The position numbers were made by a program, and so were the translations under genes. From Bacteroidota bacterium (lineage in GTDB: Bacteria > Bacteroidota > Ignavibacteria > Kapaibacteriales > UBA2268), in assembly GCA_004322215.1 (NCBI GenBank), contig SCSM01000010.1, positions 5,001-69,000 of the forward strand: 64,000 nucleotides of DNA. The letters are read 5' to 3'. This document shows positions 4,525-48,151 of the stretch, in pieces (position 1 is the first letter of the stretch; each line of letters begins with the position of its first letter). The notes beneath the pieces are model-generated. The model saw nothing but the letters and a program-made list of their open reading frames with translations, ran no database searches and had not been told where the DNA came from.

Positions 4525-5210
4525 AATTAATAATTAATAATTCACAATTAGACTGTAGACTGTAGGAGGTAGGCAGTTAGGTTATATAAAATAGAAAATT
4601 TTTACCCGATGGAGCGGGATTATATTACAATCCATCTTAAATCAAAAATCGCTAATCGTTATTCTTAAATCATCACTGTCATTACATACTTGATACGGAA
4701 CCCATAGCGTATAATCCAAATCAACATTATTTTTCACGCAGAGTCGCAGAGAATTTTGGTTATATTGAGTTAAAAATGGGCAGTTTTATTCATTTTGAAC
4801 AGTTTGGACAGGATTTTTTTGTTTTCAGTTTTGTACAATGTCATGGTTTGTCGTGTTTTGCCTCACTTTTTTTTAATTTAACATTACTCTTTAGAAATAA
4901 AACTGATTTTTAAGGAATTAGTATATTACGCACAAGGAATTTTTGTCCTGTTTTGTCACATTGTGTCTCATTTTGTCCTATTGATGTCCTATCGGTTGTG
5001 ACATAAGTGACTAAAGTCGTGTGGTGGGGGAACCAAACTCCACTATCTAAAGATAGTGGCTATTCATCCCGGAATTTCAAAGAACAAGCGGGGCAAAGAT
5101 AAGAAGGGAGGGATGATATAAAAATAAAATGGTTTTAAAAGGATTTTAAAATAATTTTTATTTTATACACATACACTGCCCTTCCTCGAGGAATGGAATT
5201 TTATATAATC
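4525..5210. repeat. Mosaic intergenic repeat element, copy A (inverted relative to copy B at 47640-48151)
   Basis: The reverse complement shares ordered blocks with 47671-48125. A 29-nt block is identical (4964-4992 = rc of 47956-47984). A 19-nt block is identical (4856-4874 = rc of 48084-48102). The promoter-like block 5078-5155 contains TATCTTTG (rc of 5094-5101). The element fills the gap between two convergent genes. Confidence 0.7.
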
Positions 5211-31839: not shown

Positions 31840-34800
31840 TTACTTGACAATATTCAATAATCCTGTTTTAACATTATTACCTGACCTTAAGGTATAGTAA
31901 TAAGCACCACTTACAAGTTTATTGGTATTGAATACGACAACATGATTGCCTGAAGCAACCGAGTTGTTATCCAGGATTCTTGCTACTGTATGTCCGGTAA
32001 CATCTGTGAGTTCAAGTGATACATCGTTCAGGTCATGTTTCGCAATGAACTGGAATGTAACATTATTCGATGTCGGGTTAGGATAACAGTTTACAATTAC
32101 AAAATCGACATTTTGATTGTCATGGTCATCCAAATCCACCACTGATGTTACAAGCTGGAATGTTCCTTCTGTCATTTTCTCACCACTGTTGTTATAAGTA
32201 ATGAAGTCAATATTGACAGTACCTGTACCCCTCAAACTGATAAAAATCGGTTTAACCGATTCGCCTGGTAAAATCGCAGATACCTCGGCACTTGCCGGAA
32301 CCTGCGGAAGTAATTGGCTATTGCCTCCCTGAATACTATACGCACTCAATATTATCTGCTGCGGGTCTATGACTGGACCAACTGCAAGTAAATCTGCACC
32401 TGATGGAGTCTTGAGCTCAATACTTCTTATTCCTTCGTCATAAGAATTCGCGTTAGTTAAATTAAGAGCGTATGTATATACATTCTGCAGATTAGCCGTG
32501 TTGTCCAAAGCCATCTGGTCACCGCCCCCGCCTTCAACTCTTGAATTTATATTATGGAGTTCAATGTCGAATGTATCGAGTGGCAAATCATTATATACGC
32601 ACTTAATAACTAATTCATTATAGAACAATCCCTTTTCAAGTGCATTATCATAGCCGAGAGTAATGTCAGTTTGACCTCCTGCAGTGATATTGACTCTTAA
32701 TTTAGCAGTCGAATCCTCGATAACAGCATCATTGCCTGATGTATTATCATGCATTGAAGCTATCAACACTGGCAATTGAGGAGTCAGTTCAACATTTGTG
32801 TAAGTCATCGCATCTACTCCGTTCGTAGTGTTCGAAATATGAAGTGTACCTGTCTGGTAATCTGTCATAGTGATATATACGTCATTCTCTGCAGTTTGTC
32901 CTTGTATTTTATTATCTTTCCTTCCCTTCTCCGCTTCGCCGTGAGTCAGATTATCCGAATAATACTTCCTGTCAATGACATACTCGACAAGTTTATCGCA
33001 AGTACAGCAGTTTGTATCAGTGAATTCATACCTTACTAAGAATTTCAACCTGTCTCCGGTTCTGCTCGTTACAGGCGGAAATTCAATCAATACTTCCATA
33101 TTCGCTCCATTCAGGATAACACTCGACAACACATGCCGGTAATCACCCCAAATGACTTCCCTGCTGTAGAATGGCTCAGACCTGAAAGTTCCGAACACAC
33201 CCTGCAAACCGTTCCACGGAGTTGTACCTGGTCCACCCAGAGGACAAGGAATAATAGAGCCGGAAGGCACCCAATATGGATGGAATGCTTTAGCACCAAG
33301 AATATCGCTATATGAATGATATGCAATTGACGATGTCGGAGTCTGTATCTGAGCACTGACTATTGTCGCGGCTGCACGGATAATCGGACCCGGCAATGCT
33401 GTCAATGAATTCTGAAGCCAAATATACCTTCCCTGTCTGATTGGCAATTGCCTGATGTTTTTCTGCCTGATATCTATGGAATCAAATTTATCGCAGCAAT
33501 TCTTGCAATTTATTATCTGTTCGAATTTACATACGACATTTCCGTTTTGGTCGAGGAATGTAATAATCACCGGGAAGCTCGTTACTCCGTCTTTCAGTTC
33601 AAAGCAAAGCTTGAAGGGCCCGTGATTACCTGCCGTCAACATTCCCGGTGGAGTCGGAACATTCCAGGAAACTCCGTTCGATGGTGGAGGTGGATTAGGC
33701 CCTATCCAGTTCGATGGGCCAACAGCACCCACAATTGTAGCAGCCGGTGAATCAAAATGAACACTGTTAATGTTCGGGAAATTCGCCGTCGCTGTGAACA
33801 TAAATGACTGGCAACATTCTCCTTTTATCTGGTCATTCGGTGTTGGTTTATATGGAACTGAATTCAATTTGAGGTTTTCACAGGTACCATTTCCTTCACC
33901 GCATTTTACATCAACTGTATCACTACAAATTATCTTACCTTCCCTGTCCGTCATCGTTACTATCATCTGAAATGAAAATACATTTGCAGGCAAGTCAAAG
34001 CATAACCTGAAGTACTCATGTATTCCTGCAGGAATTCCATGAACACCTGAAAGTAAACCGGGAGTCAAATATCTAACTCCATTCGGCGGATTTGGTGTTG
34101 ATGAGCCCCATCCCGGAGGAGTACCCGGTGTAGATGCAAATGTAATATGCACACCCGGATTTACAGGCATAAAGTTCAGATAGAACACTCCCGGGAAATC
34201 GGTGTGAGCATAAAGTTTAAATGCATAACAGCAATCACCGAGATTGTTTGCAGTTGTCGCGGGTGTATTCACCTGCAGTCTTTCGCCGGTAATTTCAAAC
34301 TCGCAATCCTTCTTTTCACAATTCATCAGTAATGTATCTTTGCATATAATTTCCCCGTTTGCACCTGTAAACTGCACTTCGACAGGGAATGAAGTCACAC
34401 CTGCGGGCAAATAGAAGCACAACCTGAAATACTTATGAACGCCATTCGGTAAATTTGCACCTGCTGTTCCAGGAGTATGGAATTTAGCACCGTTCGGCGA
34501 AACAGGAACACCGGGCCCCCACCCTGAAGGTGAATATGCAGGAAGAGCAGAAGCGATTGTTACCCCTGGATTTATCGGAATAAAATTAACCCATGCAACG
34601 CCGGGAATCGCATTCTTTACAATCAAAGCAATCTTATAGCAGCAATCACCCTTCAGATTTTTATTATCAACCGGAATTTTTTCAGTGTACCATTCTACAT
34701 CGCATTTAACTGCTTCGCAAACAATTGGGACAGTGTCAATGCAAATCTCTTTTCCATCTCTGTTAGTGTAAGCAATCTCAACCGGGAGTGAATTAACGCC

Positions 34801-36726
34801 TGCCGGCATATCAAAGCATAACCTGAAATGAGCATGTGTTCCTTGATGAAGGAACCCTGCCGGAGCCATAAAGCTGACCTCTAGTCCCGGAGGAGTCGGC
34901 GATGCGCTTCCCCATCCCGATGGGCTTGATGGCGGCTGTGCCGAAGCAATAGGTATTGATGAAATTAAAGATTTAAACCTTACATAAAATACATCCGGCA
35001 TGTCCATACCTGCATTCAGTTTGAATTGATAGCAGCAATTACCCTGGTCATTTGCTCCCGGAGTTACTTTTTCATAATCCATTTTCAATGTATCGCAGCC
35101 ACTTGAAGTCTGGCATTTTATATCGATTGTATCAGTACAGACAGTTGCTCCTGCTGCATCGAGATAAACAATTTCCAATTTGAACTCACCCTGATTACCC
35201 TGGATATCGTAACAGATTCTGAATGAATCATGGACTCCGGAATGTAAATACCCTCCCGGTGGTATAAACGCAACAGATTGCCCCGGAGGAGCCGGTGGTG
35301 CCAGCGACCAGCCAGTAGGACTCGATGGTGGTAGTGCCGATGATATCTGAACTGCTGCACTCAAAGATACGAATTTGATATATTGTATCGTTGGGAAATC
35401 AATGCTTGTTGTCAATCTGAATTGGTAACAGCAATCTCCTTCATTTGGTGTCGGCTCTACTATTTCACGCTCCATATTCAAGCTGTCACATCTGTCAATT
35501 ACCTGGCATTCTATCAGTACTGTATCCAGGCAAATAACATTATTATTAGCTCCAAGATATTTAACAATAAGTTCAAATGAAGACACACCCGCAGGTAAAT
35601 TGAAACATAATTTGAATAATTCATGTGCTCCTGACGGCAAACCGGGACCTGCCCCGATTATACCTGGTGTGGCAAACTTGATTCCGTTCGGTGGGTCGCT
35701 GGTTCCTGCACCCCATCCCGAAGGTGAAGTTGGTCTTAATGCAGTTCCAATTGTAACAGCGTTATTGACCGGAGTAAAGGATACATGTGTTAATCCGGGA
35801 TAATTCCTGTCTGCCTGAAGTTTGATATTATAACAACAATCTCCCTGGTCATTATTATTTTTTGTAGTCTTTTCGGGATATAAATGCAATCCTGCACAAA
35901 TATCGCAGGTTAACGGAACCGTATCACTGCAAATGATACCTCCATCCCTGTTCGTGTATGTGATTTCCATCGGGAATGTTGTAACACCTGCCGGCATAAA
36001 TACACATAACTTAAAGTATTGATGAGTTTCAGGAGTTATGCCTGCAGCAGGCGTCTGGAATTGTGCACCATTGCCAAATGCGGTTGCGGTTCCCCATCCT
36101 GATGGTGTTGTTGGTGATAATTTTGTACCAACGCTGACACCTGGATTTAATGGCTTGAACCTGACATAAAAAATTGTTGATTGTGGAAATGCGGTTTTAG
36201 CTAATAAAGAGAAATTATAGCAGCAATCTCCCTGGTCATTCGGTGTCGGGTCTGAATTTGCCACTGTCATCACAAGATTATCGCAGCATATTCCGTAATT
36301 CGGTCGTTCAACCATGGTGGTACATACAACCTGTTTGTTGCTCAATGCCCTGAAAGTAAGAACAGGTCCTCCCTGTAAATCACCGGATAAGCAGAAATGG
36401 AACGTTCCTTTGGTTGAATTATTAGGGATAGGAGTACCTCCGGAAAAAGTAAGCATTGTAACATTCGGATTGTATGATGTCGGACTGAATGTCCAGCTTT
36501 CCGAATGTGCTGTTCCGGATACATCGCCCCAGCTAAAATAAAAGCTACCGCCACTTACTAATACCTGAATCTCATCGACCGGAGAGCCGGTGTTATTAGT
36601 AAATGTAAATTGGTAGCAGTTGCCGCATTCATTTGTTAAATTAGCGGTACATTGTTGTTGTGATAATGCCGAATTTACACAAACTGCAAGCAACATTGCA
36701 ATTAGTAAATAAAAGATTTTTTTCAT
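31840..36726 (-). CDS. Giant T9SS cargo protein built from tandem cysteine-rich repeats (unassigned domain)
   Basis: The ORF is 1628 aa with a signal peptide (MKKIFYLLIAMLLAVCVNSALSQ). It has eight ~128-aa repeats, then a ~470-aa unique region, then a Por-type C-terminal tail (last 83 aa, 31843-32091: CYPNPTSNNVTFQF...YYYTLRSGNNVKTGLLNIVK). An AAGGAG RBS precedes the ATG. Confidence 0.65.
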   Translation of the reverse strand: MKKIFYLLIAMLLAVCVNSALSQQQCTANLTNECGNCYQFTFTNNTGSPVDEIQVLVSGGSFYFSWGDVSGTAHSESWTFSPTSYNPNVTMLTFSGGTPIPNNSTKGTFHFCLSGDLQGGPVLTFRALSNKQVVCTTMVERPNYGICCDNLVMTVANSDPTPNDQGDCCYNFSLLAKTAFPQSTIFYVRFKPLNPGVSVGTKLSPTTPSGWGTATAFGNGAQFQTPAAGITPETHQYFKLCVFMPAGVTTFPMEITYTNRDGGIICSDTVPLTCDICAGLHLYPEKTTKNNNDQGDCCYNIKLQADRNYPGLTHVSFTPVNNAVTIGTALRPTSPSGWGAGTSDPPNGIKFATPGIIGAGPGLPSGAHELFKLCFNLPAGVSSFELIVKYLGANNNVICLDTVLIECQVIDRCDSLNMEREIVEPTPNEGDCCYQFRLTTSIDFPTIQYIKFVSLSAAVQISSALPPSSPTGWSLAPPAPPGQSVAFIPPGGYLHSGVHDSFRICYDIQGNQGEFKLEIVYLDAAGATVCTDTIDIKCQTSSGCDTLKMDYEKVTPGANDQGNCCYQFKLNAGMDMPDVFYVRFKSLISSIPIASAQPPSSPSGWGSASPTPPGLEVSFMAPAGFLHQGTHAHFRLCFDMPAGVNSLPVEIAYTNRDGKEICIDTVPIVCEAVKCDVEWYTEKIPVDNKNLKGDCCYKIALIVKNAIPGVAWVNFIPINPGVTIASALPAYSPSGWGPGVPVSPNGAKFHTPGTAGANLPNGVHKYFRLCFYLPAGVTSFPVEVQFTGANGEIICKDTLLMNCEKKDCEFEITGERLQVNTPATTANNLGDCCYAFKLYAHTDFPGVFYLNFMPVNPGVHITFASTPGTPPGWGSSTPNPPNGVRYLTPGLLSGVHGIPAGIHEYFRLCFDLPANVFSFQMIVTMTDREGKIICSDTVDVKCGEGNGTCENLKLNSVPYKPTPNDQIKGECCQSFMFTATANFPNINSVHFDSPAATIVGAVGPSNWIGPNPPPPSNGVSWNVPTPPGMLTAGNHGPFKLCFELKDGVTSFPVIITFLDQNGNVVCKFEQIINCKNCCDKFDSIDIRQKNIRQLPIRQGRYIWLQNSLTALPGPIIRAAATIVSAQIQTPTSSIAYHSYSDILGAKAFHPYWVPSGSIIPCPLGGPGTTPWNGLQGVFGTFRSEPFYSREVIWGDYRHVLSSVILNGANMEVLIEFPPVTSRTGDRLKFLVRYEFTDTNCCTCDKLVEYVIDRKYYSDNLTHGEAEKGRKDNKIQGQTAENDVYITMTDYQTGTLHISNTTNGVDAMTYTNVELTPQLPVLIASMHDNTSGNDAVIEDSTAKLRVNITAGGQTDITLGYDNALEKGLFYNELVIKCVYNDLPLDTFDIELHNINSRVEGGGGDQMALDNTANLQNVYTYALNLTNANSYDEGIRSIELKTPSGADLLAVGPVIDPQQIILSAYSIQGGNSQLLPQVPASAEVSAILPGESVKPIFISLRGTGTVNIDFITYNNSGEKMTEGTFQLVTSVVDLDDHDNQNVDFVIVNCYPNPTSNNVTFQFIAKHDLNDVSLELTDVTGHTVARILDNNSVASGNHVVVFNTNKLVSGAYYYTLRSGNNVKTGLLNIVK
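33505..36651 (-). repeat. Protein-level tandem array: 8 x ~126-135-aa six-Cys repeats (residues ~26-1074)
   Basis: The recurring pattern is C...(G/N)(D/E)CCY.F.L...SP(S/T)GWG...PPNG...H..F(K/R)(L/I)C(F/Y)..PAGV.SF...(I/V)C.DT(V/I/L).(I/V/L/M).C. It appears in residues 147-274, 277-407, 413-538, 544-670, 675-803, 808-942 and 949-1074, with a degenerate copy at 26-135. The DNA copies are diverged, with no long exact nucleotide repeats. Confidence 0.7.
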
Positions 36727-37285: not shown

Positions 37286-40200
37286 ATGAAAAAATTAATA
37301 CCGTTTATTTTTTTATGTATTGTCGGTTTTATTTCAATTGAAACCGCAGTATATTCTCAGGGTACTCCTTTTCCTCCGATATTTCAAAATATTACACTCG
37401 AAGGGGCAGGTTCTTATACTCAATTTAAGTTTGACTGGTCAATGCACCCTTCCGATACATCCAGAATCACCAAATTTAAAATTTATAAGGCAAATATCTT
37501 TACGAACAATTATGTTCTATTAACTTATTGGCAAACTGTCAACAGGTATGGTACCGATACGGCATGGACAGTAAACGTCAATCCGTTATTTGTAAATAAT
37601 TACACATTTTACATTACTTCAATTAGGAAAGAAGGTGTTATTGAAATTGAAAGCATGCATTCAAATTTATTACAGGCAAGATTCAAGCAGGGACACGTTG
37701 ATGTAGTATTCACAACATTACCTCCTTCAATCGGCTCTGTCGGTTCATTATATCAATATAATGCAAATGCTTATTCACCAGATCCTGCTACTATAAATTA
37801 TGTATTAAAAAATGGTCCCCAGGCAATGTTAGTGGAATCATTAACAGGACTTGTAACATGGTTGCCGGTTAATACAGGAAGGTATAATATAAGATTGAAT
37901 GCTTTCCTTAATTTTAATCCTATCGGTATTGCTGAAAAGGGAGACAAAGATGGCACTCTATCGAAAAATATTCTGATTGATACTTCAAATTGTGAGGTTG
38001 ACCAGAACTGGCTTCTTCTTGTAAAATCCTGTAACGAGCCAACATATTTTTCTGGCTCTGTTACAGATGAAAATGGTGATACAATGAGAAATGGAATTGT
38101 AACTGCTTACAGTGTAAATAATCTCGATATTGACAGTGTATATTATGGAATTATCGGAAATGACGGGCATTATTCGGTTGAAGTGCTTGAAGGTGCATAT
38201 AAACTATCAGCCGAAGGGGGTTCTTTTCAGAAAGAGTGGAATCATAATAAAGCTACATTCAATGAAGCGGATTCAACTATTGCCAACTGTGGCAGAACAA
38301 TGACTTTGAATTGGACAGTAACGAGAAACGCTCCCGATACAATTACATTTGCGTATGAACCCATTACAGATGAATTAGTTGGGAATGAATATATTTATAA
38401 TGGTGTTGCAATGTCCAGCAGCGGTAGAGAATTGAGATATTCTCTGAGTACTGCTCCACAGGGAATGATTATTGACCCATTAACCGGCTTAGTACATTGG
38501 ACACCCTCTGCAATCGGCAGATACTATGTTTCTATAAAAGCATACCTTCTTGATGATTCTCTGAATTCCTACGCTTTTAAAAACTTTTACATAAAAGTAC
38601 GTTCCTGCATAAATGGCACTTTCATAAAAGGTAATGTTTTAGATACAGCAGGAAATGCAATTAATCAGGGAAATATTTCCGTTCATAGCGATAGTGGGAT
38701 TGATTCAGCCGGTGTTTATTTTGGAACATTAAATCCTGATGGCACCTATTTTATTAATATTGATGAAGGAAATAGTAAAATATATTTAGAGGGTGAATCC
38801 ATATTCAGCCAATGGTATGACAATAAATTAACTCAGGATAGTGCTTACTCTGTGGCTTGCCCATGCGGCGATACTACCGAAGTTAATCTTCTGGCTTACA
38901 GAATTCCTCCGCTGACTCTTTCAATCACATCGACTCCTTCTAACTCAACAGTTGTAGGAAGCATTTATAATTATAATCCTGTTGTTACAGGTAATAATGA
39001 AAGGGAATTAAGATATATTTTAATCAACAGTCCTTCTGATATGACCATCAATCCGCAGAAGGGTGAAATTAATTGGTCTCCTTCAATTGTCGGTGGTTAT
39101 AAAGTAACACTGAAAGCATATTTATATACTGATTCGGCAAACTCTTTTGTTATTCAGGAATGGTGGCTAAAAGTCAGGTCTTGTACGAACAACACTTACA
39201 TTAGCGGAATCGTAAAAGATGATAAAAATAATCTCATACCTAATGGTACGGTTAAGATAATTGATGAGACAGGTATTGATTCATTAGGATATTACATTGG
39301 TTATATCAAAGAAGGTGCTTACCGCGTTTTAGTTGATGAAGGCAAATGTAAGGTGTATGTCGAAGGTCCGACTTTTAAAAGCCAATGGTATGAGAATGCA
39401 GATTCTGAGAATAATGCTTTAGTAATAACTGTACCTTGCGGTACTAATACAAGTGCGGATTTCACAGTCAATTTATTTAAAGATTATACGGTCAGCGGCA
39501 AAGTTACAGATGAATCAACAGGAAATCCGATAGAAAATGCAAGTTTATATTTTAAAAGTTCCGATACGATGGACAGTACTACAACTAACCAATCAGGTGA
39601 TTATTCAATCAGGTTGAATGAACAAAACAGTTATATTGCCTGGGCTAAGGTCCCTCAAAATCCATTATATATTACACAGTATTACAATCTGACTGGCAAT
39701 ATAACTGAGGCAACTCCTGTCGAATTTTCAGGCAATATCGGCAATATCAATTTTGCACTGAAAATGGCTCCTGTTGCAGATAACAGGATGTTCGGCGAAG
39801 TGAGAAGCGAAAACGGAGAGCCGGTGAAATCTATTGTGTTAAATTTTACTGTGTTCCCGCGGGACACGAGTATCGCTTCGATGTTCGATGCCAGAACATA
39901 TATCACAGGGATTGACGGCACTTTCGAATTCCCAGATTTAGCCGAAGGTGATTACTTATTACTTGCAATTCCAATTCCTGATGGGAATGTTCCCGGATAT
40001 TTTAAAAAGGATACACTTGCTGTTCACTCATGGCTCGACGCATCAGTAATCAAAATTATATCGGGAGAAGCCAGTGGACCCCATACAATAACACTCCCTT
40101 ATATCTACCCGACATCAGGAAGTGGTAAGATTTCAGGCATTGTAACAGGTGACCAACTTCCTGCATTTTTAAAGAATGATGACAGTCCTCTTGCAAAGGA

Positions 40201-40705
40201 AGATATTGATGGTGCTGTTGTTATAACAGTTGATAAGGATGAGAAAGTTAGGAAGTACAATTTGACTAATTCAATTGGAGTATATTCTCTCGACTCGCTT
40301 GAGAACGGTGATTATAATGTCAGCATAGATAAATTCGGATATGGGAACTATTCTTACGATATTACAATAGATGATAATAATCAAACTCATAGTGGCGATG
40401 CAGAGCTCGTTGTTGAGCTCCCGGTTGGAGTCAAAGATAATTTATCCGACTTGGCAAAATTGATAAAAATCTATCCGAATCCTGCTGATGGAATTTTTCA
40501 GCTTCAAAGCGACTACGACTTGAGTAATAGTCGAATATCAGCATTTAACTTATTCGGGCAATCAATCAATTTGGAAAAGTATATGTCCATCATCAATACG
40601 AATTCATTAAAAATTAAATTGGATAATGTTGCACAAGGTTTATATTTTATTAAAATTGATTTAAACGGGAAATCAATCATCAAAACAGTATTAATTATAA
40701 AATAA
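37286..40705 (+). CDS. Large modular T9SS cargo protein (Ig/cadherin-like modules alternating with carboxypeptidase-regulatory-like beta-sandwiches)
   Basis: The ORF is 1139 aa with a signal peptide. There are three paralogous modules (...ELRY.L...P..M.I.P..G...W.PS..G.Y.V..KAYL....NS.......KVRSC.N.T.I.G.V.D..GN.I..G...). Further G.V.DE..G.P-type beta-sandwich units follow. The Por-type tail covers the last 80 aa (40463-40702: IYPNPADGIFQLQS...GLYFIKIDLNGKSIIKTVLIIK). Confidence 0.6.
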   Translation: MKKLIPFIFLCIVGFISIETAVYSQGTPFPPIFQNITLEGAGSYTQFKFDWSMHPSDTSRITKFKIYKANIFTNNYVLLTYWQTVNRYGTDTAWTVNVNPLFVNNYTFYITSIRKEGVIEIESMHSNLLQARFKQGHVDVVFTTLPPSIGSVGSLYQYNANAYSPDPATINYVLKNGPQAMLVESLTGLVTWLPVNTGRYNIRLNAFLNFNPIGIAEKGDKDGTLSKNILIDTSNCEVDQNWLLLVKSCNEPTYFSGSVTDENGDTMRNGIVTAYSVNNLDIDSVYYGIIGNDGHYSVEVLEGAYKLSAEGGSFQKEWNHNKATFNEADSTIANCGRTMTLNWTVTRNAPDTITFAYEPITDELVGNEYIYNGVAMSSSGRELRYSLSTAPQGMIIDPLTGLVHWTPSAIGRYYVSIKAYLLDDSLNSYAFKNFYIKVRSCINGTFIKGNVLDTAGNAINQGNISVHSDSGIDSAGVYFGTLNPDGTYFINIDEGNSKIYLEGESIFSQWYDNKLTQDSAYSVACPCGDTTEVNLLAYRIPPLTLSITSTPSNSTVVGSIYNYNPVVTGNNERELRYILINSPSDMTINPQKGEINWSPSIVGGYKVTLKAYLYTDSANSFVIQEWWLKVRSCTNNTYISGIVKDDKNNLIPNGTVKIIDETGIDSLGYYIGYIKEGAYRVLVDEGKCKVYVEGPTFKSQWYENADSENNALVITVPCGTNTSADFTVNLFKDYTVSGKVTDESTGNPIENASLYFKSSDTMDSTTTNQSGDYSIRLNEQNSYIAWAKVPQNPLYITQYYNLTGNITEATPVEFSGNIGNINFALKMAPVADNRMFGEVRSENGEPVKSIVLNFTVFPRDTSIASMFDARTYITGIDGTFEFPDLAEGDYLLLAIPIPDGNVPGYFKKDTLAVHSWLDASVIKIISGEASGPHTITLPYIYPTSGSGKISGIVTGDQLPAFLKNDDSPLAKEDIDGAVVITVDKDEKVRKYNLTNSIGVYSLDSLENGDYNVSIDKFGYGNYSYDITIDDNNQTHSGDAELVVELPVGVKDNLSDLAKLIKIYPNPADGIFQLQSDYDLSNSRISAFNLFGQSINLEKYMSIINTNSLKIKLDNVAQGLYFIKIDLNGKSIIKTVLIIK

Positions 40706-40956: not shown

Positions 40957-43900
40957 ATGAGGAAAATTGCATTACTAATATTACTTTTGAGCATTATCAA
41001 TATATTTTCTCTTGAGTCATGCTTCGGTCAGGATTGGAAAAAATATATTGATAGTTTAGACTTTTATTATAATAAGAATGATTTTCAAAATGCTGTACCA
41101 TTTATTGAAAAAGGATTGTTTAGTATTCAATCCGGAATAGAAAAAAAAGATTCTATTTATATACAAACATTAGAAAAATCAATAGACATATATCTTAATC
41201 TCGATGATTATGAAATGTCGCTTAAACTCGCTAAGGAAGACAGTTCGATAACTTCAGAATTATATGGTAAAATAAGCGAACAACATGCTAAATCCGTTAC
41301 ATTGCTTGCTATAACTTATAAATCTATTCGTAATTACAAGGAAGCAGAACTTTCTTATAGGGAAGCACTAAGTATAAAAAGAAAAATAAATAAGCAAGAT
41401 GACTCGGCTTTTGCTGCATTTTTAAGTCATACAGCAGAATTTTTCGATGATATTAACAAGACCGAATATGCCGAGAAACTGAATAAAGAAGCCCTGGATA
41501 TGAGAATCCGGCTATTCAAAAATGACCATGCCGATATAGCCGATAGTTACGTTAACGAAGCACTTTATCTCAAGAAACAGGGTAAATATGAAGAAGCAGA
41601 GCCATATTATAATGAAGCATTGAAAATTTACCGAAAATTAAATCATCCGGATTTACCTCTCTGTTTGACAAATTTAGCAGTATTATACAAAGATATGGGC
41701 AGATACCAGGACGCTGAAAATTTATATAAAGAAGCTTTGGATATCAGGAGAAAAATATATAATAAACCTAACCTTTCCCTGGCAAACAGCATCAACAATA
41801 TGGCAAGGATTTACAGGTTGACAGGTAAATACCAGCAAGCAGAAACACTATTTATGGAAGCTCTCGGTTTGTACAAGCAATTGGTAAAAGGAGACCACCC
41901 TATACTGGCTTTGCTTATGAACAACATTGCCGAGTTCTATACATCAATCGGGAAGTTCAGCATTGCTGAAAATTATTACAAAGAATCGTTGCAGATATAC
42001 AGGAATCTATATAAAAATGATAATCCCGAATTATCAAACATGCTGAATAATCTCGGTTCATTTTATCTTGAAATGGGGAGATATTCTGAAGCCGAGCAAC
42101 TATGCCGCGAAGCGTTGAGCATGAACAGACGTCTCTATGCCGAAGTACATCCTAACCTAGCAAAATCAATCAGCAATATGGCAAGATGCTGCCGTTTGCA
42201 AGGCAAATATGCCGAAGCAGAGCCACTATACAGGGAGGCAATGACAATGGCAAGGAAAATTTATTCTGAAGATAATCCCGAACTTGCAAACTTCATCAGC
42301 GCTGCTGCTTCGTTTTATAATATTAAGGGTATGTCGAACCAGGCGGGTCCACTTTATGAGGAAGCTCTTCGCATTCAGAGGAAAATTTTCAAAAATGACA
42401 ACTCTGAATTAGCTAACACAATAAGCAATATCGCTAATTTTTACGACGAACAAGGCGATGCTGACAAAGCAGAGCCACTCTATATCGAAGCACTCGAAAT
42501 GAGAAAGCGGCTTTTTAAAGAAGACCACCCCGACCTCGCCATCAGCATAAGCAACCTTGCTTCTTTTTATGATGCCCGTCACAATTATGATAAAGCTGAA
42601 TCATTGTACAAATCTGCTCTCGAGATGAGAAGAAGGATTTACAAAACTGACCACCCGGACATTGCCGTGAGCATGAACAATCTTGCTTTCCATCACTTAA
42701 ATCACGGGCAACCGGAATTAGCATTGGCTTTGCTCGACAGTTCCCTTGCTATGAACAGGAGATTGTTCACGAGCCAAAGCCCGGTTCTGCTCAACAGCAT
42801 CTACAGCATGGCAAAACTTTGCGAAGACATGGGCAAACTGAATGAAGCAGAAAAACTTTATAACGAGGCATTTTCCAATATTCAAAAAATCGTTTCATCT
42901 TACTTCCCTTCATTAAGTGAAAAAGAAAAGGGACAGTTCTGGAATACGATGAAAGGATATTATGATTCCTACAATTCATTTGCCATAAAAAGCATTAAGG
43001 GCAATCCTGCTCTTAGCGGGAACATGTACGACAACCAGCTTGCCACCAAAGCATTGCTTTTCACTTCAATCAGTAAGGTTAAAAGAAGAATTTTAAATTC
43101 CCGTGATTCCTCATTAATAGAAAATTACAAACAATGGATTTCATTGAAAGAGTATCTCGTCAAATTATATACATACACAAAGGATAAACTGCTTAAAGAA
43201 AATATCAACCTGGATTCCATTGAAAATTTAGCTAATGTTCTCGAAAAGCAGATAAGCTTAAAATCAGAATTATTTTCCGAATCCTACGAGAAAAAGAAAA
43301 TAAGCTGGAAAACCATCCAGGCATTTCTTAAACCGGATGAAGCAGCTATCGAGATTATCAGGTTCAGGTACAGGGAGAAAAACTGGACTGACACAATAAT
43401 CTATGCCGCACTGATTATCACCGACCAGACAACTGAACATCCCGAAATTGTTTTGTTCGAAAACGGAAACAAGCTCGAGGGATGGCTTTACAATTTTTAC
43501 AGGGAAAACCTCAAATCTGTTCAGCATGACAAAGAATCTTTCGATTTGTTCTGGTCAAAAATTTATGATGTTACCAAAAATGTTAAAAAGATTTATTTAT
43601 CTACTGACGGAATCTACAACAAAATCAATCCTTCCACTTTTGTCGGTCCCAACGATAAATACCTTCTCGAGGAAAAGGACATACAAATCTGCAACAGTAC
43701 ACGCGACATCATCGTCAGCTATTACAGGACACAAAAAGATGTCAATTTGCTGAACAGTGCCGAGTTGTTCGGCAATCCCGATTACCTATTGACAAAAGAG
43801 AAGAAAAAGAAAATAAACGGGAAAAACCGCTCATTGAGTGATGATTTTCCACAGCTCACAATTGATTCGACTTTCGTTTTGAAATCACTTCCGGCTTCCG

Positions 43901-44526
43901 AGGACGAAATACTTAATGTAGCAAAATTCCTCCACAGCAAAAGCTGGCTCGTCCATACACACTTAAGAGAAGATGCATTGAAATCGGAAGTAAAAAATGT
44001 TTCCAATCCACGCGTTTTGCATATCGCCACTCACGGAGTATTTCTTCCCGACATTACTGCCGAGCTTGCAAACATTTTCGGATTCGAAAGCAAACGTCTC
44101 CTCGAAAATCCCCTGCTCCGTTCAGGACTGTTTTTTGCCGGTGCATCAAATATTATCACAGGTAAAAACACAGAACTAAGTGAAGAAGACAACGGTATTC
44201 TTACTTCCTACGAAGCGATGGACCTGGACCTCGACCACACAGAGCTTGTAGTACTTTCAGCTTGCGAAACCGGGCTCGGTGAAATCAAAAACGGCGAAGG
44301 TGTTTATGGACTCCAAAGGGCATTCCAAACGGCAGGAGCAAAGACAGTGCTGATGTCGCTGTGGTCTGTCGGCGACGAATCCACAAACGAGCTGATGACT
44401 ATGTTTTACAACAACTGGGTAACAGGAATGTCAAAGCGCGAGGCATTCCGCACAGCACAGCTCGCAATCTTCAACAAATACAAAATCCCATATATCTGGG
44501 GAGCATTTGTCATGGTAGGGGAATAA
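40957..44526 (+). CDS. Signal-peptide TPR-repeat protein with C-terminal CHAT (caspase-like) protease domain
   Basis: The ORF is 1189 aa. The N-terminal signal is MRKIALLILLLSIINIFSLESCFGQ. About a dozen 42-aa TPR_12-type units follow (NLA..Y...G.Y..AE.LY.EAL.I.RK). The CHAT dyad contexts are VLHIATHGVF (His1026, nt 44032-44034) and LVVLSACETGLGE (Cys1103, nt 44263-44265). Confidence 0.8.
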   Translation: MRKIALLILLLSIINIFSLESCFGQDWKKYIDSLDFYYNKNDFQNAVPFIEKGLFSIQSGIEKKDSIYIQTLEKSIDIYLNLDDYEMSLKLAKEDSSITSELYGKISEQHAKSVTLLAITYKSIRNYKEAELSYREALSIKRKINKQDDSAFAAFLSHTAEFFDDINKTEYAEKLNKEALDMRIRLFKNDHADIADSYVNEALYLKKQGKYEEAEPYYNEALKIYRKLNHPDLPLCLTNLAVLYKDMGRYQDAENLYKEALDIRRKIYNKPNLSLANSINNMARIYRLTGKYQQAETLFMEALGLYKQLVKGDHPILALLMNNIAEFYTSIGKFSIAENYYKESLQIYRNLYKNDNPELSNMLNNLGSFYLEMGRYSEAEQLCREALSMNRRLYAEVHPNLAKSISNMARCCRLQGKYAEAEPLYREAMTMARKIYSEDNPELANFISAAASFYNIKGMSNQAGPLYEEALRIQRKIFKNDNSELANTISNIANFYDEQGDADKAEPLYIEALEMRKRLFKEDHPDLAISISNLASFYDARHNYDKAESLYKSALEMRRRIYKTDHPDIAVSMNNLAFHHLNHGQPELALALLDSSLAMNRRLFTSQSPVLLNSIYSMAKLCEDMGKLNEAEKLYNEAFSNIQKIVSSYFPSLSEKEKGQFWNTMKGYYDSYNSFAIKSIKGNPALSGNMYDNQLATKALLFTSISKVKRRILNSRDSSLIENYKQWISLKEYLVKLYTYTKDKLLKENINLDSIENLANVLEKQISLKSELFSESYEKKKISWKTIQAFLKPDEAAIEIIRFRYREKNWTDTIIYAALIITDQTTEHPEIVLFENGNKLEGWLYNFYRENLKSVQHDKESFDLFWSKIYDVTKNVKKIYLSTDGIYNKINPSTFVGPNDKYLLEEKDIQICNSTRDIIVSYYRTQKDVNLLNSAELFGNPDYLLTKEKKKKINGKNRSLSDDFPQLTIDSTFVLKSLPASEDEILNVAKFLHSKSWLVHTHLREDALKSEVKNVSNPRVLHIATHGVFLPDITAELANIFGFESKRLLENPLLRSGLFFAGASNIITGKNTELSEEDNGILTSYEAMDLDLDHTELVVLSACETGLGEIKNGEGVYGLQRAFQTAGAKTVLMSLWSVGDESTNELMTMFYNNWVTGMSKREAFRTAQLAIFNKYKIPYIWGAFVMVGE

Positions 44527-44720
44527 TTCACAATTCATAATTCATAATTAAGAATGAAAGCTGTCACACTGAGCCAGTCGAAGCATTAATTACCCCTCTT
44601 GAGAGGGGATTAAGGGGTGTGTACTTATCAAATCAAAAATCGTTAATACTTGTTCTTAATTTTATTCACCCTTACTCGGGGAAAGGTAGGTGTAGAAACT
44701 TTTGTCTTTCCCATATTTTC
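44527..44720. repeat. Partial mosaic intergenic element, copy C
   Basis: It starts right after the CHAT stop with TTCACAATTCATAATTCATAATT; compare AATTAATAATTCACAATT after the porin stop at 4527. It contains the perfect hairpin CCCCTC-TTGA-GAGGGG (44593-44608). A ~34-nt module AAATCAAAAATCGTTAATACTTGTTCTTAAT (44629-44662) recurs at 4639-4670. Confidence 0.5.
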
Positions 44721-44893
44721 TCCTTAAATTAATCTAAAATTAACATAAACATTCAATAAAACTTTTAGTTACAATACAGGAAGTGTACTATTTAATAGAT
44801 GTCAGTGTTGCCAAGAAAAAAAATAAAATAAAATAAAATATCTTTTATAAAATTGAAAAATAATAATTTAATAACATTTAAAATTAGGCTCAT

Positions 44894-45283
44894 ATGTATT
44901 TAAATTATAAAGAAAAGAAAACCGATGGAACGTTTGGTGCAGAAATATCTTATAAGATAGTTTATAATGAAACATTTATTCTACCATCAAATTCAAATTT
45001 AGATCTTCAAATAAAAATTGATGGGATAAATTTGAATTTTCAAATACAATTAGAAGATACAGGTGTAGATAAACCATATGTAAATTGGACTACAAAAGAT
45101 ATAATTAATAATGATTCAACTTTTTATATACATTTAACAGGTTGGAGAAATAGCATTGGTGCAGTTATGCCAGTACCAGCAAAAGTAGGAAATATTAATG
45201 GGAAATCTATATATTTTTATTTTTGCAGTCATTTCATTGCTAATTCAAATTTGATAACATTTCAAATTATGCAAGGAATTTAA
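44894..45283 (+). CDS. Hypothetical small soluble protein (orf129), first gene of the AIPR islet operon
   Basis: The 129-aa ORF has beta-strand-like alternation and no TM segment. I recognise no motif. Its stop is immediately followed by the next ATG. Confidence 0.45.
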   Translation: MYLNYKEKKTDGTFGAEISYKIVYNETFILPSNSNLDLQIKIDGINLNFQIQLEDTGVDKPYVNWTTKDIINNDSTFYIHLTGWRNSIGAVMPVPAKVGNINGKSIYFYFCSHFIANSNLITFQIMQGI

Positions 45284-45730
45284 ATGAATAAAGATAAGGA
45301 AGAGGAACTAGCTAAACAAAATAATGCTGAAGGAATTCAAACTACCGAAGCAGATTATACTAATTTAAAAAATAAATATGATAAACTATTTAATGAACTA
45401 AATATCAAAGTAGAAAAAATTACCTCCGATATAGAACAAGAAAGAAAAAGAATAATTGAGATTTTAGCTTTTTTTACAGCAGCTATGGCATTCATTTTAT
45501 CTACTATAAATATAAGCCAACAGTTCAGTTTTAATGATGCTTTATTTTTATTATTTTCTATGGGATTTATTCTTTCATGTTTTTTATTAGCTGGTCATTA
45601 TATATTTAATAAAACAATTTTAAATATTTCTAAAGCAAATTGGTTTTGTTATTTTATTTATTTAATTGCAATTCTTGGAATATATTTAGGATTCTTAATA
45701 TTAATGACTTATTTACATAAAAATTTATAA
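45284..45730 (+). CDS. Hypothetical membrane protein (orf148): charged coiled-coil N-terminus plus three TM helices
   Basis: Residues 1-55 are K/E-rich (DYTNLKNKYDKLFNELNIKVEKITSDIEQERKR). Three hydrophobic segments follow: IIEILAFFTAAMAFILSTINI, ALFLLFSMGFILSCFLLAGHYIF and WFCYFIYLIAILGIYLGFLILMTYL. Confidence 0.5.
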   Translation: MNKDKEEELAKQNNAEGIQTTEADYTNLKNKYDKLFNELNIKVEKITSDIEQERKRIIEILAFFTAAMAFILSTINISQQFSFNDALFLLFSMGFILSCFLLAGHYIFNKTILNISKANWFCYFIYLIAILGIYLGFLILMTYLHKNL

Positions 45731-45742
45731 TATTTATAATTC

Positions 45743-45862
45743 ATGATAAATCATTCTATCAAACCAGAAAAAGGAAAAGCATGGCATATATACATGCACC
45801 CTTATTTCACAAAACAAGCTTCTAATGTAGTTAGAGAATATCTTAAAAAATTAATAAAATAA
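45743..45862 (+). CDS. 39-codon ORF, possibly a fragment of a DNA methyltransferase-like gene
   Basis: The ORF is not in the track. Its translation is MINHSIKPEKGKAWHIYMHPYFTKQASNVVREYLKKLIK*. It sits 12 nt after orf148 and 9 nt before the AIPR ATG. It could be spurious. Confidence 0.2.
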   Translation: MINHSIKPEKGKAWHIYMHPYFTKQASNVVREYLKKLIK

Positions 45863-45871
45863 GGTGATTCG

Positions 45872-47548
45872 ATGCCAAATAGTACAAAAATAATACTTAT
45901 TGAAGTATTGAGACAGAAAAAGGTTGAATTAGCACCAGATCTAACAGATGATGAATTTTTTGGACTTTTTTCTTGCGAGCAAATTTTAAAGGATTATGAT
46001 ATATCATATGACCAAATTAAAAGTGGTATTGTTGACGGCGGGGGAGATGGAGGAATAGATGCTGTATATACTTTTATTAATGGGGAACTTTTAGAAGAGG
46101 ATACTGAGTACTTGTACTTAAAGAAAGAAATAAACATCGATTTATTTATCATTCAATCAAAGAATCAAGAATCATATAAAGAAGAAGCAATTAATAAATT
46201 ACATGCTTCAGCCATTGATTTATTTGATTTATCTAAAGAATTAGATACATTAAAAAGCACTTATAATTCTGAGCTATTATTTAAAATAGATTTATTTAGA
46301 ACAGCATTTCTTACTTTGGCTTCTAAATTTCCAAAACTTAATATTTATTATTATTATTCTACATTAGGTGATAAACCAGATCAAAAAGTTGAAAGGAAAG
46401 TAAGTGTATTAGAAAAAGTTATTAAAAGTGGATTTTCAGATTGTAATTTTATATTTACCTTTTTAAATTCAGATACTCTTTTACTATTAGCAAGAAAACA
46501 ACCTGTTATTACTAAATCATTAAATATTGAGGAAACACCTATATCAACAAAAGATGGTGGTTTTATAGTTTTGGTTAATCTATTCAATTATTATAAATTT
46601 ATTGTTGATGATAATGATAAAATATTAAAATCTATTTTTGATGCTAATGTAAGGGATTATCAAGGTAAGGTTGAAGTTAATAAAGCAATAAAAGATAGTT
46701 TACAAAATAATTTCAATGAAGATTTTTGGTGGTTAAATAACGGTGTAACAATTACATCAAATAAAACTGTTTTATCAGGTAAAGCCCTTCAAATTGAAGA
46801 ACCTCAAATTGTTAATGGATTACAGACTTCTTATGAGATATATAATTATTTTCACTCTGAAATTTCTAATAAAGCTGATAGAAAAATATTGATTCGTATT
46901 TTAAAACCCGAGAATGAAACAAGTAGATTAAAAATAATTAAAGCTACGAATAGCCAAACAAATATTCCAATCGCTTCATTAAGAGCCACTGATGAAATTC
47001 ATTTAAATATTGAGGATTATTTTCTTTCAAAAGGATTTTTCTATGATAGAAGAAAAAATTACTATAAAAACTTAGAAAAACCCATTGACAAAATAATTAG
47101 TATACCATATTTAGCTCAGATAATGACTGCAATTTTACTAAAGGAACCAGATTATTCGAGAGCACGGCCATCTTCATTAATAAAAAGTGAGGAAAAATAT
47201 AAAATGATTTTTGATAATTCAATAAGTCCAGAATTATATCTAAAATCAGTTATTTTACAAAAGCGAGTCGAATCAATTTTAAAAAATTTCCAACCTTTAT
47301 TAACAAAAAACGAAATTGGTGATTTGAAATTTCATTTGACAATGTCAATAATTATTAAATATTTAAAGAAAACAAATTATACAATTAAGGATTTCAGTAA
47401 TATTAATATTGAAAGCATTTCAGACAGTGACATAAAAGATGTTCTTAATATTTTAAAACAAATTTATCTAGATTTAGGAAATACTAACAAGGTAGCTAAA
47501 AGTCCAGAATTTGTAAAAAAAATTATTGAAACACTAATTAATATATAA
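45872..47548 (+). CDS. AIPR (abortive infection phage resistance) family protein with Mrr-like PD-QxK N-terminal module
   Basis: The ORF is 558 aa. The N-terminus reads VDGGGDGGIDAVY...INIDLFIIQSK (nt 46034-46162). The central region FWWLNNGVTITS...IEEPQIVNGLQTS...IKATNSQTN matches my memory of the AIPR core (NNGITI / NG.QT). Confidence 0.65.
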   Translation: MPNSTKIILIEVLRQKKVELAPDLTDDEFFGLFSCEQILKDYDISYDQIKSGIVDGGGDGGIDAVYTFINGELLEEDTEYLYLKKEINIDLFIIQSKNQESYKEEAINKLHASAIDLFDLSKELDTLKSTYNSELLFKIDLFRTAFLTLASKFPKLNIYYYYSTLGDKPDQKVERKVSVLEKVIKSGFSDCNFIFTFLNSDTLLLLARKQPVITKSLNIEETPISTKDGGFIVLVNLFNYYKFIVDDNDKILKSIFDANVRDYQGKVEVNKAIKDSLQNNFNEDFWWLNNGVTITSNKTVLSGKALQIEEPQIVNGLQTSYEIYNYFHSEISNKADRKILIRILKPENETSRLKIIKATNSQTNIPIASLRATDEIHLNIEDYFLSKGFFYDRRKNYYKNLEKPIDKIISIPYLAQIMTAILLKEPDYSRARPSSLIKSEEKYKMIFDNSISPELYLKSVILQKRVESILKNFQPLLTKNEIGDLKFHLTMSIIIKYLKKTNYTIKDFSNINIESISDSDIKDVLNILKQIYLDLGNTNKVAKSPEFVKKIIETLINI

Positions 47549-47639
47549 ATTTACAATAACCTGTAAGAAATTATATAAGCTCTATAACAAAGAGTAAATA
47601 GTTACTGATAAAATTCCATCAACTATAATTTTAGTAATA

Positions 47640-48151
47640 TTGTATTAGATGACCCTCTCCTTTTTAATTTTTAAAACCATTTTAAAATCCTTTTAAAACT
47701 ATTTTCTTGAAATATCACTCCCACAACCTTATCTTTGCACCGCATGTTCTTTGCTAAATAATGTCGGGCTGAATCTAGTCAATGCCGGTTGTAATGAAAT
47801 GGATATCCCGTTCCATCGGGATATTAATGTTCGGGGATTTTCCTTACACACTTTATACACTTTATAACTTTACAAACTTTCAACATTTCAATTATAAATC
47901 CACCATTCAAAACTTATCACTCAAAACTCAAAATTGTCTAATCTTGTCGCATCCAATAGGACATCAATAGGACAAAATGAGACAAAAACGGACAAAACAG
48001 GACAAATTGAGACAAATATTCCACATATACAATGTATTAACTCCTTACAAATCAATTTAATTTCTGGAGAGCAATACAAAAATAAAAAAAAGTGAGGCAA
48101 AATAGGACAAAATAGGACAAATATTCCCAATTAGTAATTCGTAATTAGTAA
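47640..48151. repeat. Mosaic intergenic repeat element, copy B
   Basis: Component blocks in order:
- promoter-like block 47671-47753 with TATCTTTG at 47730-47737
- hairpin ATATCCCG-TTCCAT-CGGGATAT at 47803-47824
- degenerate 9-mer tandem (ACACTTTAT)n at 47847-47893
- six GACA(A/T) boxes at 47960, 47971, 47981, 47991, 48001 and 48011
- A8-GTGAGGCAAAA block at 48084-48102
- three more CAAAAT boxes
- AATTAGTAATTCGTAATTAGTAATT abutting the POP stop. Confidence 0.7.

Follow-up and report, generated by a model that had tools for sequence, protein, structure and literature searches.

An AbiU-type gene and an adjacent DUF6864-membrane protein gene pair in a low-GC stretch of a Bacteroidota genome

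Four open reading frames (ORFs) are packed closely together on the forward strand of a contig from a Bacteroidota bacterium (GCA_004322215.1, contig SCSM01000010.1), at positions 44894-47548 of an analysed stretch of 64,000 nucleotides that is referred to here as the window. The last of them encodes an AIPR protein, and an initial annotation had proposed that all four constitute one multi-gene abortive-infection (Abi) system, made up of the small soluble protein orf129, the membrane protein orf148, a gene fragment and the AIPR protein. The question raised by this locus is whether one system or more than one is present. The results described below suggest that it is probably a low-GC, horizontally acquired defence islet in which two independent modules stand side by side: the AIPR gene as a member of the known system AbiU, and orf129 with orf148 as an undescribed pair of a DUF6864 gene and a gene for a small transmembrane (TM) protein.

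Gene arrangement and the AbiU gene

The four ORFs cover positions 44894-45283 (orf129, 129 aa), 45284-45730 (orf148, 148 aa), 45743-45862 (39 aa) and 45872-47548 (the AIPR gene, 558 aa), all on the + strand, and the ORF list confirmed gaps of 0, 12 and 9 nt in this order. The boundary between orf129 and orf148 consists of a single TAA, and the 39-aa ORF is joined to the AIPR gene by its stop codon and three further codons. The start positions 44894, 45284, 45743 and 45872 are all 2 mod 3, which places the four ORFs in one reading frame; by chance this is expected in about 1 of 27 cases. The G+C content (GC) of 44894-47548 was 24.4% as compared to 35.1% for the whole window, and it was the minimum among all window stretches of 2.65 kb. 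The individual genes had GC values of 21.7-25.8%, while the flanking genes for a TPR-CHAT protein and a peptidase S9 had 38.5% and 41.9%, respectively, which bears out the AT-richness noted at the outset. By composition, a low-GC islet was delimited at 44541-48151 between these two neighbours (25.6% GC, no strand assigned), and both modules are located inside it. Scans of the islet and its flanks with Rfam and for tRNA genes gave no match. The stretch 44894-47548 looks defence-related and horizontally acquired.

The 558-aa protein had been called an AIPR protein, and this call was correct. The Pfam profile PF10592 matched above its gathering threshold (128.4 bits versus a cut-off of 25, E 5.8e-37), with residues 256-529 aligned to profile positions 1-297 of 308. 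The statement that no named system fits had to be revised for this gene, as the PADLOC model for AbiU, a named single-gene system, matched the protein along its entire length (PDLC02357, E 4.9e-191; residues 6-555 aligned to positions 3-534 of the 537-position profile). The same statement stood for orf129 and orf148, neither of which had a match in PADLOC-DB v2.0.0 at E <= 0.1. The AIPR protein also matched PHROG 1841, described as 'Abi alpha-like abortive infection mechanism', and its gene is preceded by an AAGGTGA Shine-Dalgarno (SD)-like motif. AIPR homologues number thousands; the nearest ones, 60% identical over the full length, belong to Flavobacterium, Runella, Sediminibacterium and other Bacteroidota. 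The 589-aa AIPR protein of the Lactococcus cremoris plasmid pC42 was 35% identical over 99% of the query. On pC42 the AIPR gene is followed by a gene for 341 aa, a layout resembling the order of abiU1 and abiU2; the pC42 protein is possibly the published AbiUi. Judged by its sequence, the 558-aa gene adds a member to the known AbiU family and is of the standard single-gene type.

An alignment of 28 AIPR homologues showed that D59, G60, G61, I62, D63, Q95 and K97 are invariant. In the AlphaFold2 (AF2) model of the protein, which had a mean predicted local distance difference test (pLDDT) score of 81.5, D63 was placed just ahead of the strand 64-69, and Q95 and K97 at the end of the strand 88-97. 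This modelled placement fits a putative nuclease-like N-terminus of the PD-(D/E)xK (restriction-endonuclease-like) kind, which the initial annotation had called Mrr-like. A review of 2026 lists AbiU as a single-component system, with AbiUi alone being protective and phage transcription being delayed, and the AlphaFold model of AbiUi resembles the nuclease FokI (PMC13064643). AbiU1/AIPR genes often occur beside restriction-modification (RM) systems (PMC3632139, PMC3506569).

The occurrence of the small upstream genes was determined in 86 loci with AbiU homologues, 52 of which comprised at least 900 nt upstream of the AIPR gene. Eighty of the loci, with 38-60% identity, were obtained from a metagenome scan with an AIPR alignment. 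The six-frame ORFs of all loci were searched with the DUF6864 hidden Markov model (E <= 1), by phmmer, and by tblastn with orf129, orf148 and the 39-aa ORF. None of the 86 loci had a homologue of DUF6864, of orf148 or of the 39-aa ORF, and nothing beyond noise was obtained. In most of the 52 loci with a long upstream region, the nearest upstream ORF on the same strand ended more than 100 nt away. Upstream ORFs within about 25 nt of the AIPR gene, which were compared by size, varied from 100 to 861 aa depending on the locus. The three nearest homologues on long contigs were solo genes. One had recA and a rhodanese gene as its neighbours, another was located between a Ro60/TROVE gene and a small dnstrm_HI1420 gene, and the third stood amid unrelated small genes. 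The AbiU copy on a Klebsiella plasmid was also solo; it had an upstream spacer of about 685 nt and adjoined a reverse transcriptase and AAA ATPase pair. A scan of genome contigs with the AIPR protein gave one distant locus only. In the opposite direction, no AIPR gene was present in any of the eight DUF6864 contexts retrieved besides the window (see below), as determined by tblastn for the six metagenomic contexts with DNA and from gene tables for the contig of family member P0132 and for a phage.

These counts bear directly on the proposal that orf129, orf148, the 39-aa ORF and the AIPR gene are one integrated Abi system, with the small proteins as sensor and membrane component and AIPR as the nuclease effector. 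The proposal draws on the common strand, the short gaps, the uniformly low GC, the lack of a terminator-like site and the common reading frame of all four ORFs. The common frame was read as a coincidence, because where the two genes of the pair overlap in other genomes, they do so in different frames. With none of the three small genes in 86 AbiU loci, no AIPR gene in the other DUF6864 contexts, and AbiU working on its own in Lactococcus (PMC13064643), a single integrated system is considered highly improbable, and this claim of the initial annotation is not supported.

The 39-aa ORF (45743-45862, + strand) lies in the spacer of 141 nt between orf148 and the AIPR gene and has no SD-like motif. 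It had no match in Pfam, NCBIfam, PHROGs, the PDB, plasmids or the fetched loci, and its designation as a fragment was dropped, as no known gene supports this label. An N-terminal remnant of a DNA methyltransferase was considered in view of the frequent linkage of AIPR genes to RM systems (PMC3632139), and was rejected, since Pfam, NCBIfam, PHROG, PDB and plasmid searches gave no match, and a resemblance to a single TPR was insignificant (E 3-4). The ORF exceeds the length that chance would give, as ORFs of at least 39 aa were found in 0.3-0.5% of shuffled spacers. The 39-aa ORF may be a small leader gene or a remnant.

The best sigma-70-like promoter match, TTTACA-17-TATAAT (11/12), is located at 45712-45740 on the + strand, at the end of orf148 and upstream of the AIPR gene. 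Sigma-70-like sites were not in excess in the region (31 versus 28 +/- 5.6 in shuffles), and the consensus may not be that of the host. It is possible that AbiU has its own promoter at 45712-45740, and separate expression of this gene is plausible because of the 141-nt spacer and the position of the best promoter-like site just upstream.

The DUF6864 gene and its membrane-protein partner

The first gene of the pair, orf129 (44894-45283, + strand), encodes a small all-beta protein of the family DUF6864. It matched PF21732 with E 1.9e-10 and 41 bits versus a cut-off of 27, and the match spanned positions 6-110 of the 114-position profile. When 1.84 billion representatives were searched exhaustively with HMMER, 26 relatives were obtained at E <= 1e-3, which had 85-126 aa and were 22-39% identical to orf129. 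The family is real but sparse, as only these 26 relatives were present among so many representatives. A word-indexed homologue search with orf129 gave the self-match only, and the DUF6864 alignments contained no conserved stretch of 7-10 columns. The AF2 model, calculated with the alignment of the 26 relatives, consisted of nine strands in an all-beta arrangement with a pLDDT of 93 and a predicted TM-score (pTM) of 0.81, in agreement with the earlier description of orf129 as small and beta-rich. The near-invariant residues of the family, W84, G89, P95 and G99, are located in the segment that links the strands 74-82 and 96-101 and at the beginning of the second of these strands. Foldseek found no fold match for the model in the PDB (best E 0.2, TM-score < 0.36). 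In the BFVD one good match was obtained, to the uncharacterised protein A0A8S5UAT7 of the metagenomic siphovirus Siphoviridae sp. ctlIg4 (E 2.3e-6, TM-score 0.63-0.67).

PHROG matches were found for 16 of the 26 DUF6864 members, namely to phrog_32866 (best E 6.4e-20) and phrog_35122 (2e-07), both of unknown function, and orf129 itself matched phrog_32866 weakly (E 1.3e-3). None of the 26 members matched PADLOC-DB v2.0.0 at E <= 0.01, and a full-text literature search gave no paper naming DUF6864 or PF21732. Scans of viral contigs with single DUF6864 proteins yielded no matches, nor did tblastn with orf129 and the member P0137 against annotated phages or with P0137 against plasmids. Only P0138 retrieved a phage from the annotated collections by tblastn, the Acinetobacter phage Ab105-2phi. 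Two apparent similarities were rejected. A match of the DUF6864 profile to PDB entry 9n30 ('LM2379') was attributed to chance, as its E value was 0.0056, it covered half of the profile, the target was repetitive and beta-strand-like, and Foldseek gave no support. The likeness of orf129 to the Eag/DUF1795 chaperones EagT6 and SciW was insignificant (Foldseek E 0.57-1.1, TM-score 0.16-0.24).

The second gene, orf148 (45284-45730, + strand), starts with an ATG directly after the stop codon of orf129 and has an AAGGAA SD-like motif. Hydropathy analysis confirmed the earlier description of a charged head followed by three TM segments: 24 of the 56 residues of the head are charged (43%), and the TM segments comprise residues 57-75, 86-104 and 122-140. 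No family in Pfam, NCBIfam, PHROGs or PADLOC matched orf148 above threshold. The Pfam family Phage_holin_3_6 matched below threshold (E 0.022, 15.2 bits, cut-off 28.4). Both orf129 and orf148 are real genes, tightly coupled and undescribed.

The association of the two genes was followed through nine independent contexts, i.e. the window, those of seven family members and the phage Ab105-2phi. In all nine, the DUF6864 gene was directly followed by a small gene, of 88-148 aa where it was not cut by a contig end (one case), and the spacing ranged from an overlap of 8 nt to a gap of 12 nt. The partner had 119 aa and followed after 1 nt in the case of P0130 (loci L007-L012), while it overlapped by 4 nt in the cases of P0129 (L013; 99 aa) and P0132 (known from a gene table only; 88 aa). 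Overlaps of 8 nt occurred with P0145 (L015; 128 aa), P0131 (L098 and L099; 111 aa) and P0146 (L014), whose partner was the one cut by the contig end, and an overlap of 1 nt with P0134 (L097; 88 aa). In Ab105-2phi the two genes are ORF36 and ORF37, the latter encoding 117 aa after a gap of 12 nt. All eight partners with an available sequence, including orf148, had a hydrophilic N-terminal head of about 30-80 residues followed by TM segments. At the hydropathy threshold used, 1-2 TM segments were scored in each of the six metagenomic partners and 3 in orf148. Inspection by eye, the only evaluation made for the phage ORF37, revealed two hydrophobic stretches in this protein and in each complete metagenomic partner. 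A DUF6864 gene plus a small TM gene is thus a conserved unit of its own, separable from AbiU.

The pair was found in several kinds of surroundings. Locus L007 (2928-12318) is a dense defence island, in which a PD-T7-5-like fragment and a type II methyltransferase with a BsuBI/PstI-type restriction endonuclease are followed by the pair, an HNH gene, three unassigned genes (333, 312 and 171 aa), a second HNH gene and UzuA (Uzume). This locus is from a widely sampled metagenomic bacterium, and its three unassigned genes are possible further candidates in their own right. Downstream of the pair in L013, at a distance of 1.1 kb, there is a candidate defence gene of the type PDC-S59 (E 6e-69), with a Prim-Pol/AAA_25 gene further on. 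In L097 (12-5778) the pair lies between a tyrosine integrase gene and a Zot-like (PF05707) gene; this locus looks like an integrated element and may be inovirus-like, with the pair as cargo. In L098 the pair is preceded by a DUF1233 gene, DUF1233 being a family of putative excisionases. In the cultivated temperate phage Ab105-2phi (KT588075.2; L103 5962-6714), ORF36 and ORF37 are both annotated as hypothetical. ORF36 is DUF6864-like (phrog_32866, E 4.5e-74) and ORF37 has 2 TM segments; the two genes are located two genes downstream of the Q-like antiterminator gene ORF34, and further downstream there are an HNH gene and the terminase gene. Altogether, three of the nine contexts had known or candidate defence genes next to the pair, and in three more the pair was part of a mobile element or a phage. 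Based on these contexts, the pair is carried as accessory cargo by defence islands, by integrative elements and by a temperate phage. The co-occurrence of the genes was negative in both directions with regard to AIPR, but positive with regard to a linkage of the pair to defence islands and mobile elements.

The position of the pair in Ab105-2phi suggests another explanation, according to which the pair is no host defence but a phage-derived module for lysis timing (holin/antiholin-like) or for superinfection exclusion by a prophage, present as a relic or as cargo. In lambdoid phages, lysis genes and morons are located after the Q antiterminator gene, and the Ab105-2phi pair follows closely after a Q-like gene. 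The PHROG matches of the majority of the DUF6864 members, the small partner with two TM segments and the holin match of orf148 point in the same direction. The holin match is, however, below the Pfam cut-off, and no endolysin gene followed the pair in the contexts examined, nor was a lysin-like or endolysin gene found beside it in the locus tables examined. Moreover, the window, L007 and L013 have no phage structural genes nearby, and the neighbours there are defence genes. Superinfection exclusion would in any case overlap with the explanation favoured here and would not contradict it. A phage module without a role in host defence is considered unlikely.

Tight translational coupling, small genes, location in islands and integrative elements and rapid sequence divergence would also suit a toxin-antitoxin (TA)-like addiction module, with the membrane protein as toxin and the DUF6864 protein as antitoxin, that stabilises islands or mobile elements and has no specific anti-phage role. 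Searches of Pfam, NCBIfam and PADLOC revealed no similarity to a known TA family, and the order of the genes, soluble first and membrane second, is compatible with such a module but not diagnostic. As TA and Abi functions are often the same, the distinction is not a sharp one. An addiction module of this kind appears improbable; it and the lysis or exclusion module are partly overlapping ideas.

Flanks and neighbouring genes

The four ORFs had been described as bracketed by mosaic repeats. The repeats were real, but the two flanks of the islet are not repeats of each other and do not form a matching pair; each resembles parts of another intergenic region. In the right flank, an intergenic repeat element with tandem GGACAAAA-type 10-mers occupies 47673-48119 (no strand assigned), and a second copy in reverse orientation is located at 4839-5158. 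By blastn the two were 75-80% identical in opposite orientation. The element is about 450 nt long, is present in at least two copies in the window and contains a hairpin at 47803-47824. The GGACAAAA-type motif occurred 13 times versus 0.66 expected occurrences, and a search of the right-flank repeat against Rfam gave no match. It may be an element resembling a miniature inverted-repeat transposable element (MITE) or a repetitive extragenic palindrome (REP), or a recombination hotspot for cargo genes.

In the left flank, a piece of 30 nt (44630-44659) resembled 4639-4668, and a TAATTCATAATT-type motif was common to this flank and 4530-4668. A hairpin, CCCCTC-TTGA-GAGGGG with TTAAT/ATTAA flanks, is located at 44594-44611, 70 nt past the stop codon of the CHAT gene, and lacks a T-run; it may be a terminator or a part of a repeat element. 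A Logan contig of a sister sample, sought as an island-free allele, ended 53 nt past the peptidase gene, at the repeat region.

The adjoining gene on the left (40957-44526) had been designated a CHAT protease gene, and the CHAT domain was confirmed (PF12770, E 4e-60). It encodes a protein of 1189 aa with a signal-peptide-like start, about ten TPR_12/TPR_10 repeats and the CHAT domain at the C-terminus. This TPR-CHAT protein was considered as a component of the system and rejected, since its gene has a core-like GC of 38.5%, its N-terminus is signal-peptide-like, and its PADLOC matches were generic TPR matches plus weak PrimPol and PDC-S39 matches. Because of the core-like GC and the signal-peptide-like start, the protein is probably extracytoplasmic and outside the defence islet.

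Further observations concern other parts of the window. An ORF of 1628 aa at 31840-36726 (- strand) contains, at 33589-36038, repeats that recur about every 400 nt. The C-terminal sequence of a 1139-aa protein encoded at 37286-40705 (...KIYPNPADGIF...) is similar to sorting domains of the type IX secretion system (T9SS), which points to a member of the FCB group (Bacteroidota or Ignavibacteriota-like) with about 35% GC. SD-like motifs precede several window genes, which is less usual for typical Bacteroidota.

Proposed roles and comparison with known systems

With two independent modules, the AbiU protein of the islet would act alone, as lactococcal AbiUi does, by means of its predicted nuclease-like N-terminal domain with the D...QxK motif. 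The outcome would be impaired expression of phage genes and an aborted infection.

For the pair, a translationally coupled production of a cytosolic all-beta DUF6864 protein and a small inner-membrane protein is proposed, with the N-terminal head of the latter in the cytoplasm; the basic residues just ahead of the first TM segment fit this topology. The membrane protein may be the effector and act in a holin-like or pore-forming manner, by making the membrane permeable or by depolarising it. The DUF6864 protein may be its stoichiometric cytosolic partner, which either restrains the effector until a phage-derived cue appears or senses this cue, and a fixed ratio of the two proteins would fit the translational coupling. 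The conserved GW-N-S-L-G...P...G region of DUF6864 is a candidate for the interaction surface. As a result, the infecting phage would be excluded or the infected cell would die prematurely. The pair is thus a candidate for a membrane-acting exclusion or abortive-infection module. That it represents an undescribed, self-contained anti-phage system of two genes, in which a new all-beta fold would serve for sensing or regulation and a minimal membrane protein as the effector, and which is thinly spread across bacteria, mobile elements and temperate phages, is put forward tentatively, as a possibility rather than an expectation. Cooperation of the pair with the adjacent AbiU within the islet is a weaker possibility.

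Several points weigh against two independent defence modules. The genes for orf129, orf148 and AIPR share the extremely low GC (22-25%) and are separated by tiny gaps, and a terminator-like site sought between orf148 and the AIPR gene was not found. For these reasons the three genes were probably acquired together and may be co-transcribed, and functional cross-talk in the source genome is possible. For the defence role of the pair, guilt by association in a handful of loci is the only basis, and DUF6864 is a rare family. The membrane proteins encoded by the second genes are alike in architecture, but their sequences have hardly anything in common (best pairwise E about 1e-4), so that their homology was inferred from position. 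With regard to AbiU, a whole-chain Foldseek search with the AIPR model gave nothing significant (best E 0.09) and recovered no nuclease-like fold, and the assignment of this fold to the N-terminus therefore relies on the motif and on the literature.

The AbiU gene by itself would be a matter of routine annotation, and the value of the locus lies in the DUF6864 pair that was set apart from it. The pair is compact (about 840 nt), has a confidently predicted fold that is absent from the PDB, and its only entries in four profile libraries are a DUF and PHROGs without a known function. It recurs beside RM, HNH, Uzume, PDC-S59 and AbiU genes and in a cultivated temperate Acinetobacter phage. This makes it a cheap and testable candidate for a new minimal mechanism of membrane-acting defence or exclusion, for which Ab105-2phi and its host are a ready experimental system. 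The locus also calls for caution, as tight packing of genes in a defence islet is not evidence of a single system.

Compared with known systems, the AIPR protein resembles AbiU (AbiUi/AbiU1 of L. lactis) in its full-length PDLC02357 and AIPR match, in the invariant D...QxK residues and in the existence of solo homologues. It differs in that 47549-48151 of the window contains no downstream ORF of the AbiUii/HEPN-like type, and in that the gene, known here from sequence, is located in a chromosomal islet of an organism with 35% GC and T9SS-type sorting domains and not on a lactococcal plasmid.

The pair is similar to phage holin/antiholin systems in its small protein with two or three TM segments and a predicted cytoplasmic N-terminus, and in one phage it is located downstream of a late-gene antiterminator. 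In contrast to these systems, it has no adjacent endolysin gene, the partner is an all-beta soluble protein and not a second membrane protein, and the holin match is sub-threshold. The likeness of phrog_32866, phrog_35122 and A0A8S5UAT7 to the DUF6864 members extends the distribution of the family and not the mechanism.

Small TM effectors are used by a number of anti-phage modules, among them the TM effectors of CBASS and Pycsar, '2TM-1TM-TIR' and 'Hydrolase-3TM' described by Rousset, and premature lysis of the AbiZ type. The pair differs from such modules in having no similarity to entries of PADLOC v2 and no enzymatic or signalling domain. It resembles them in that a small soluble protein is coupled to a small protein with several TM segments, and in that it resides in defence islands and prophages.

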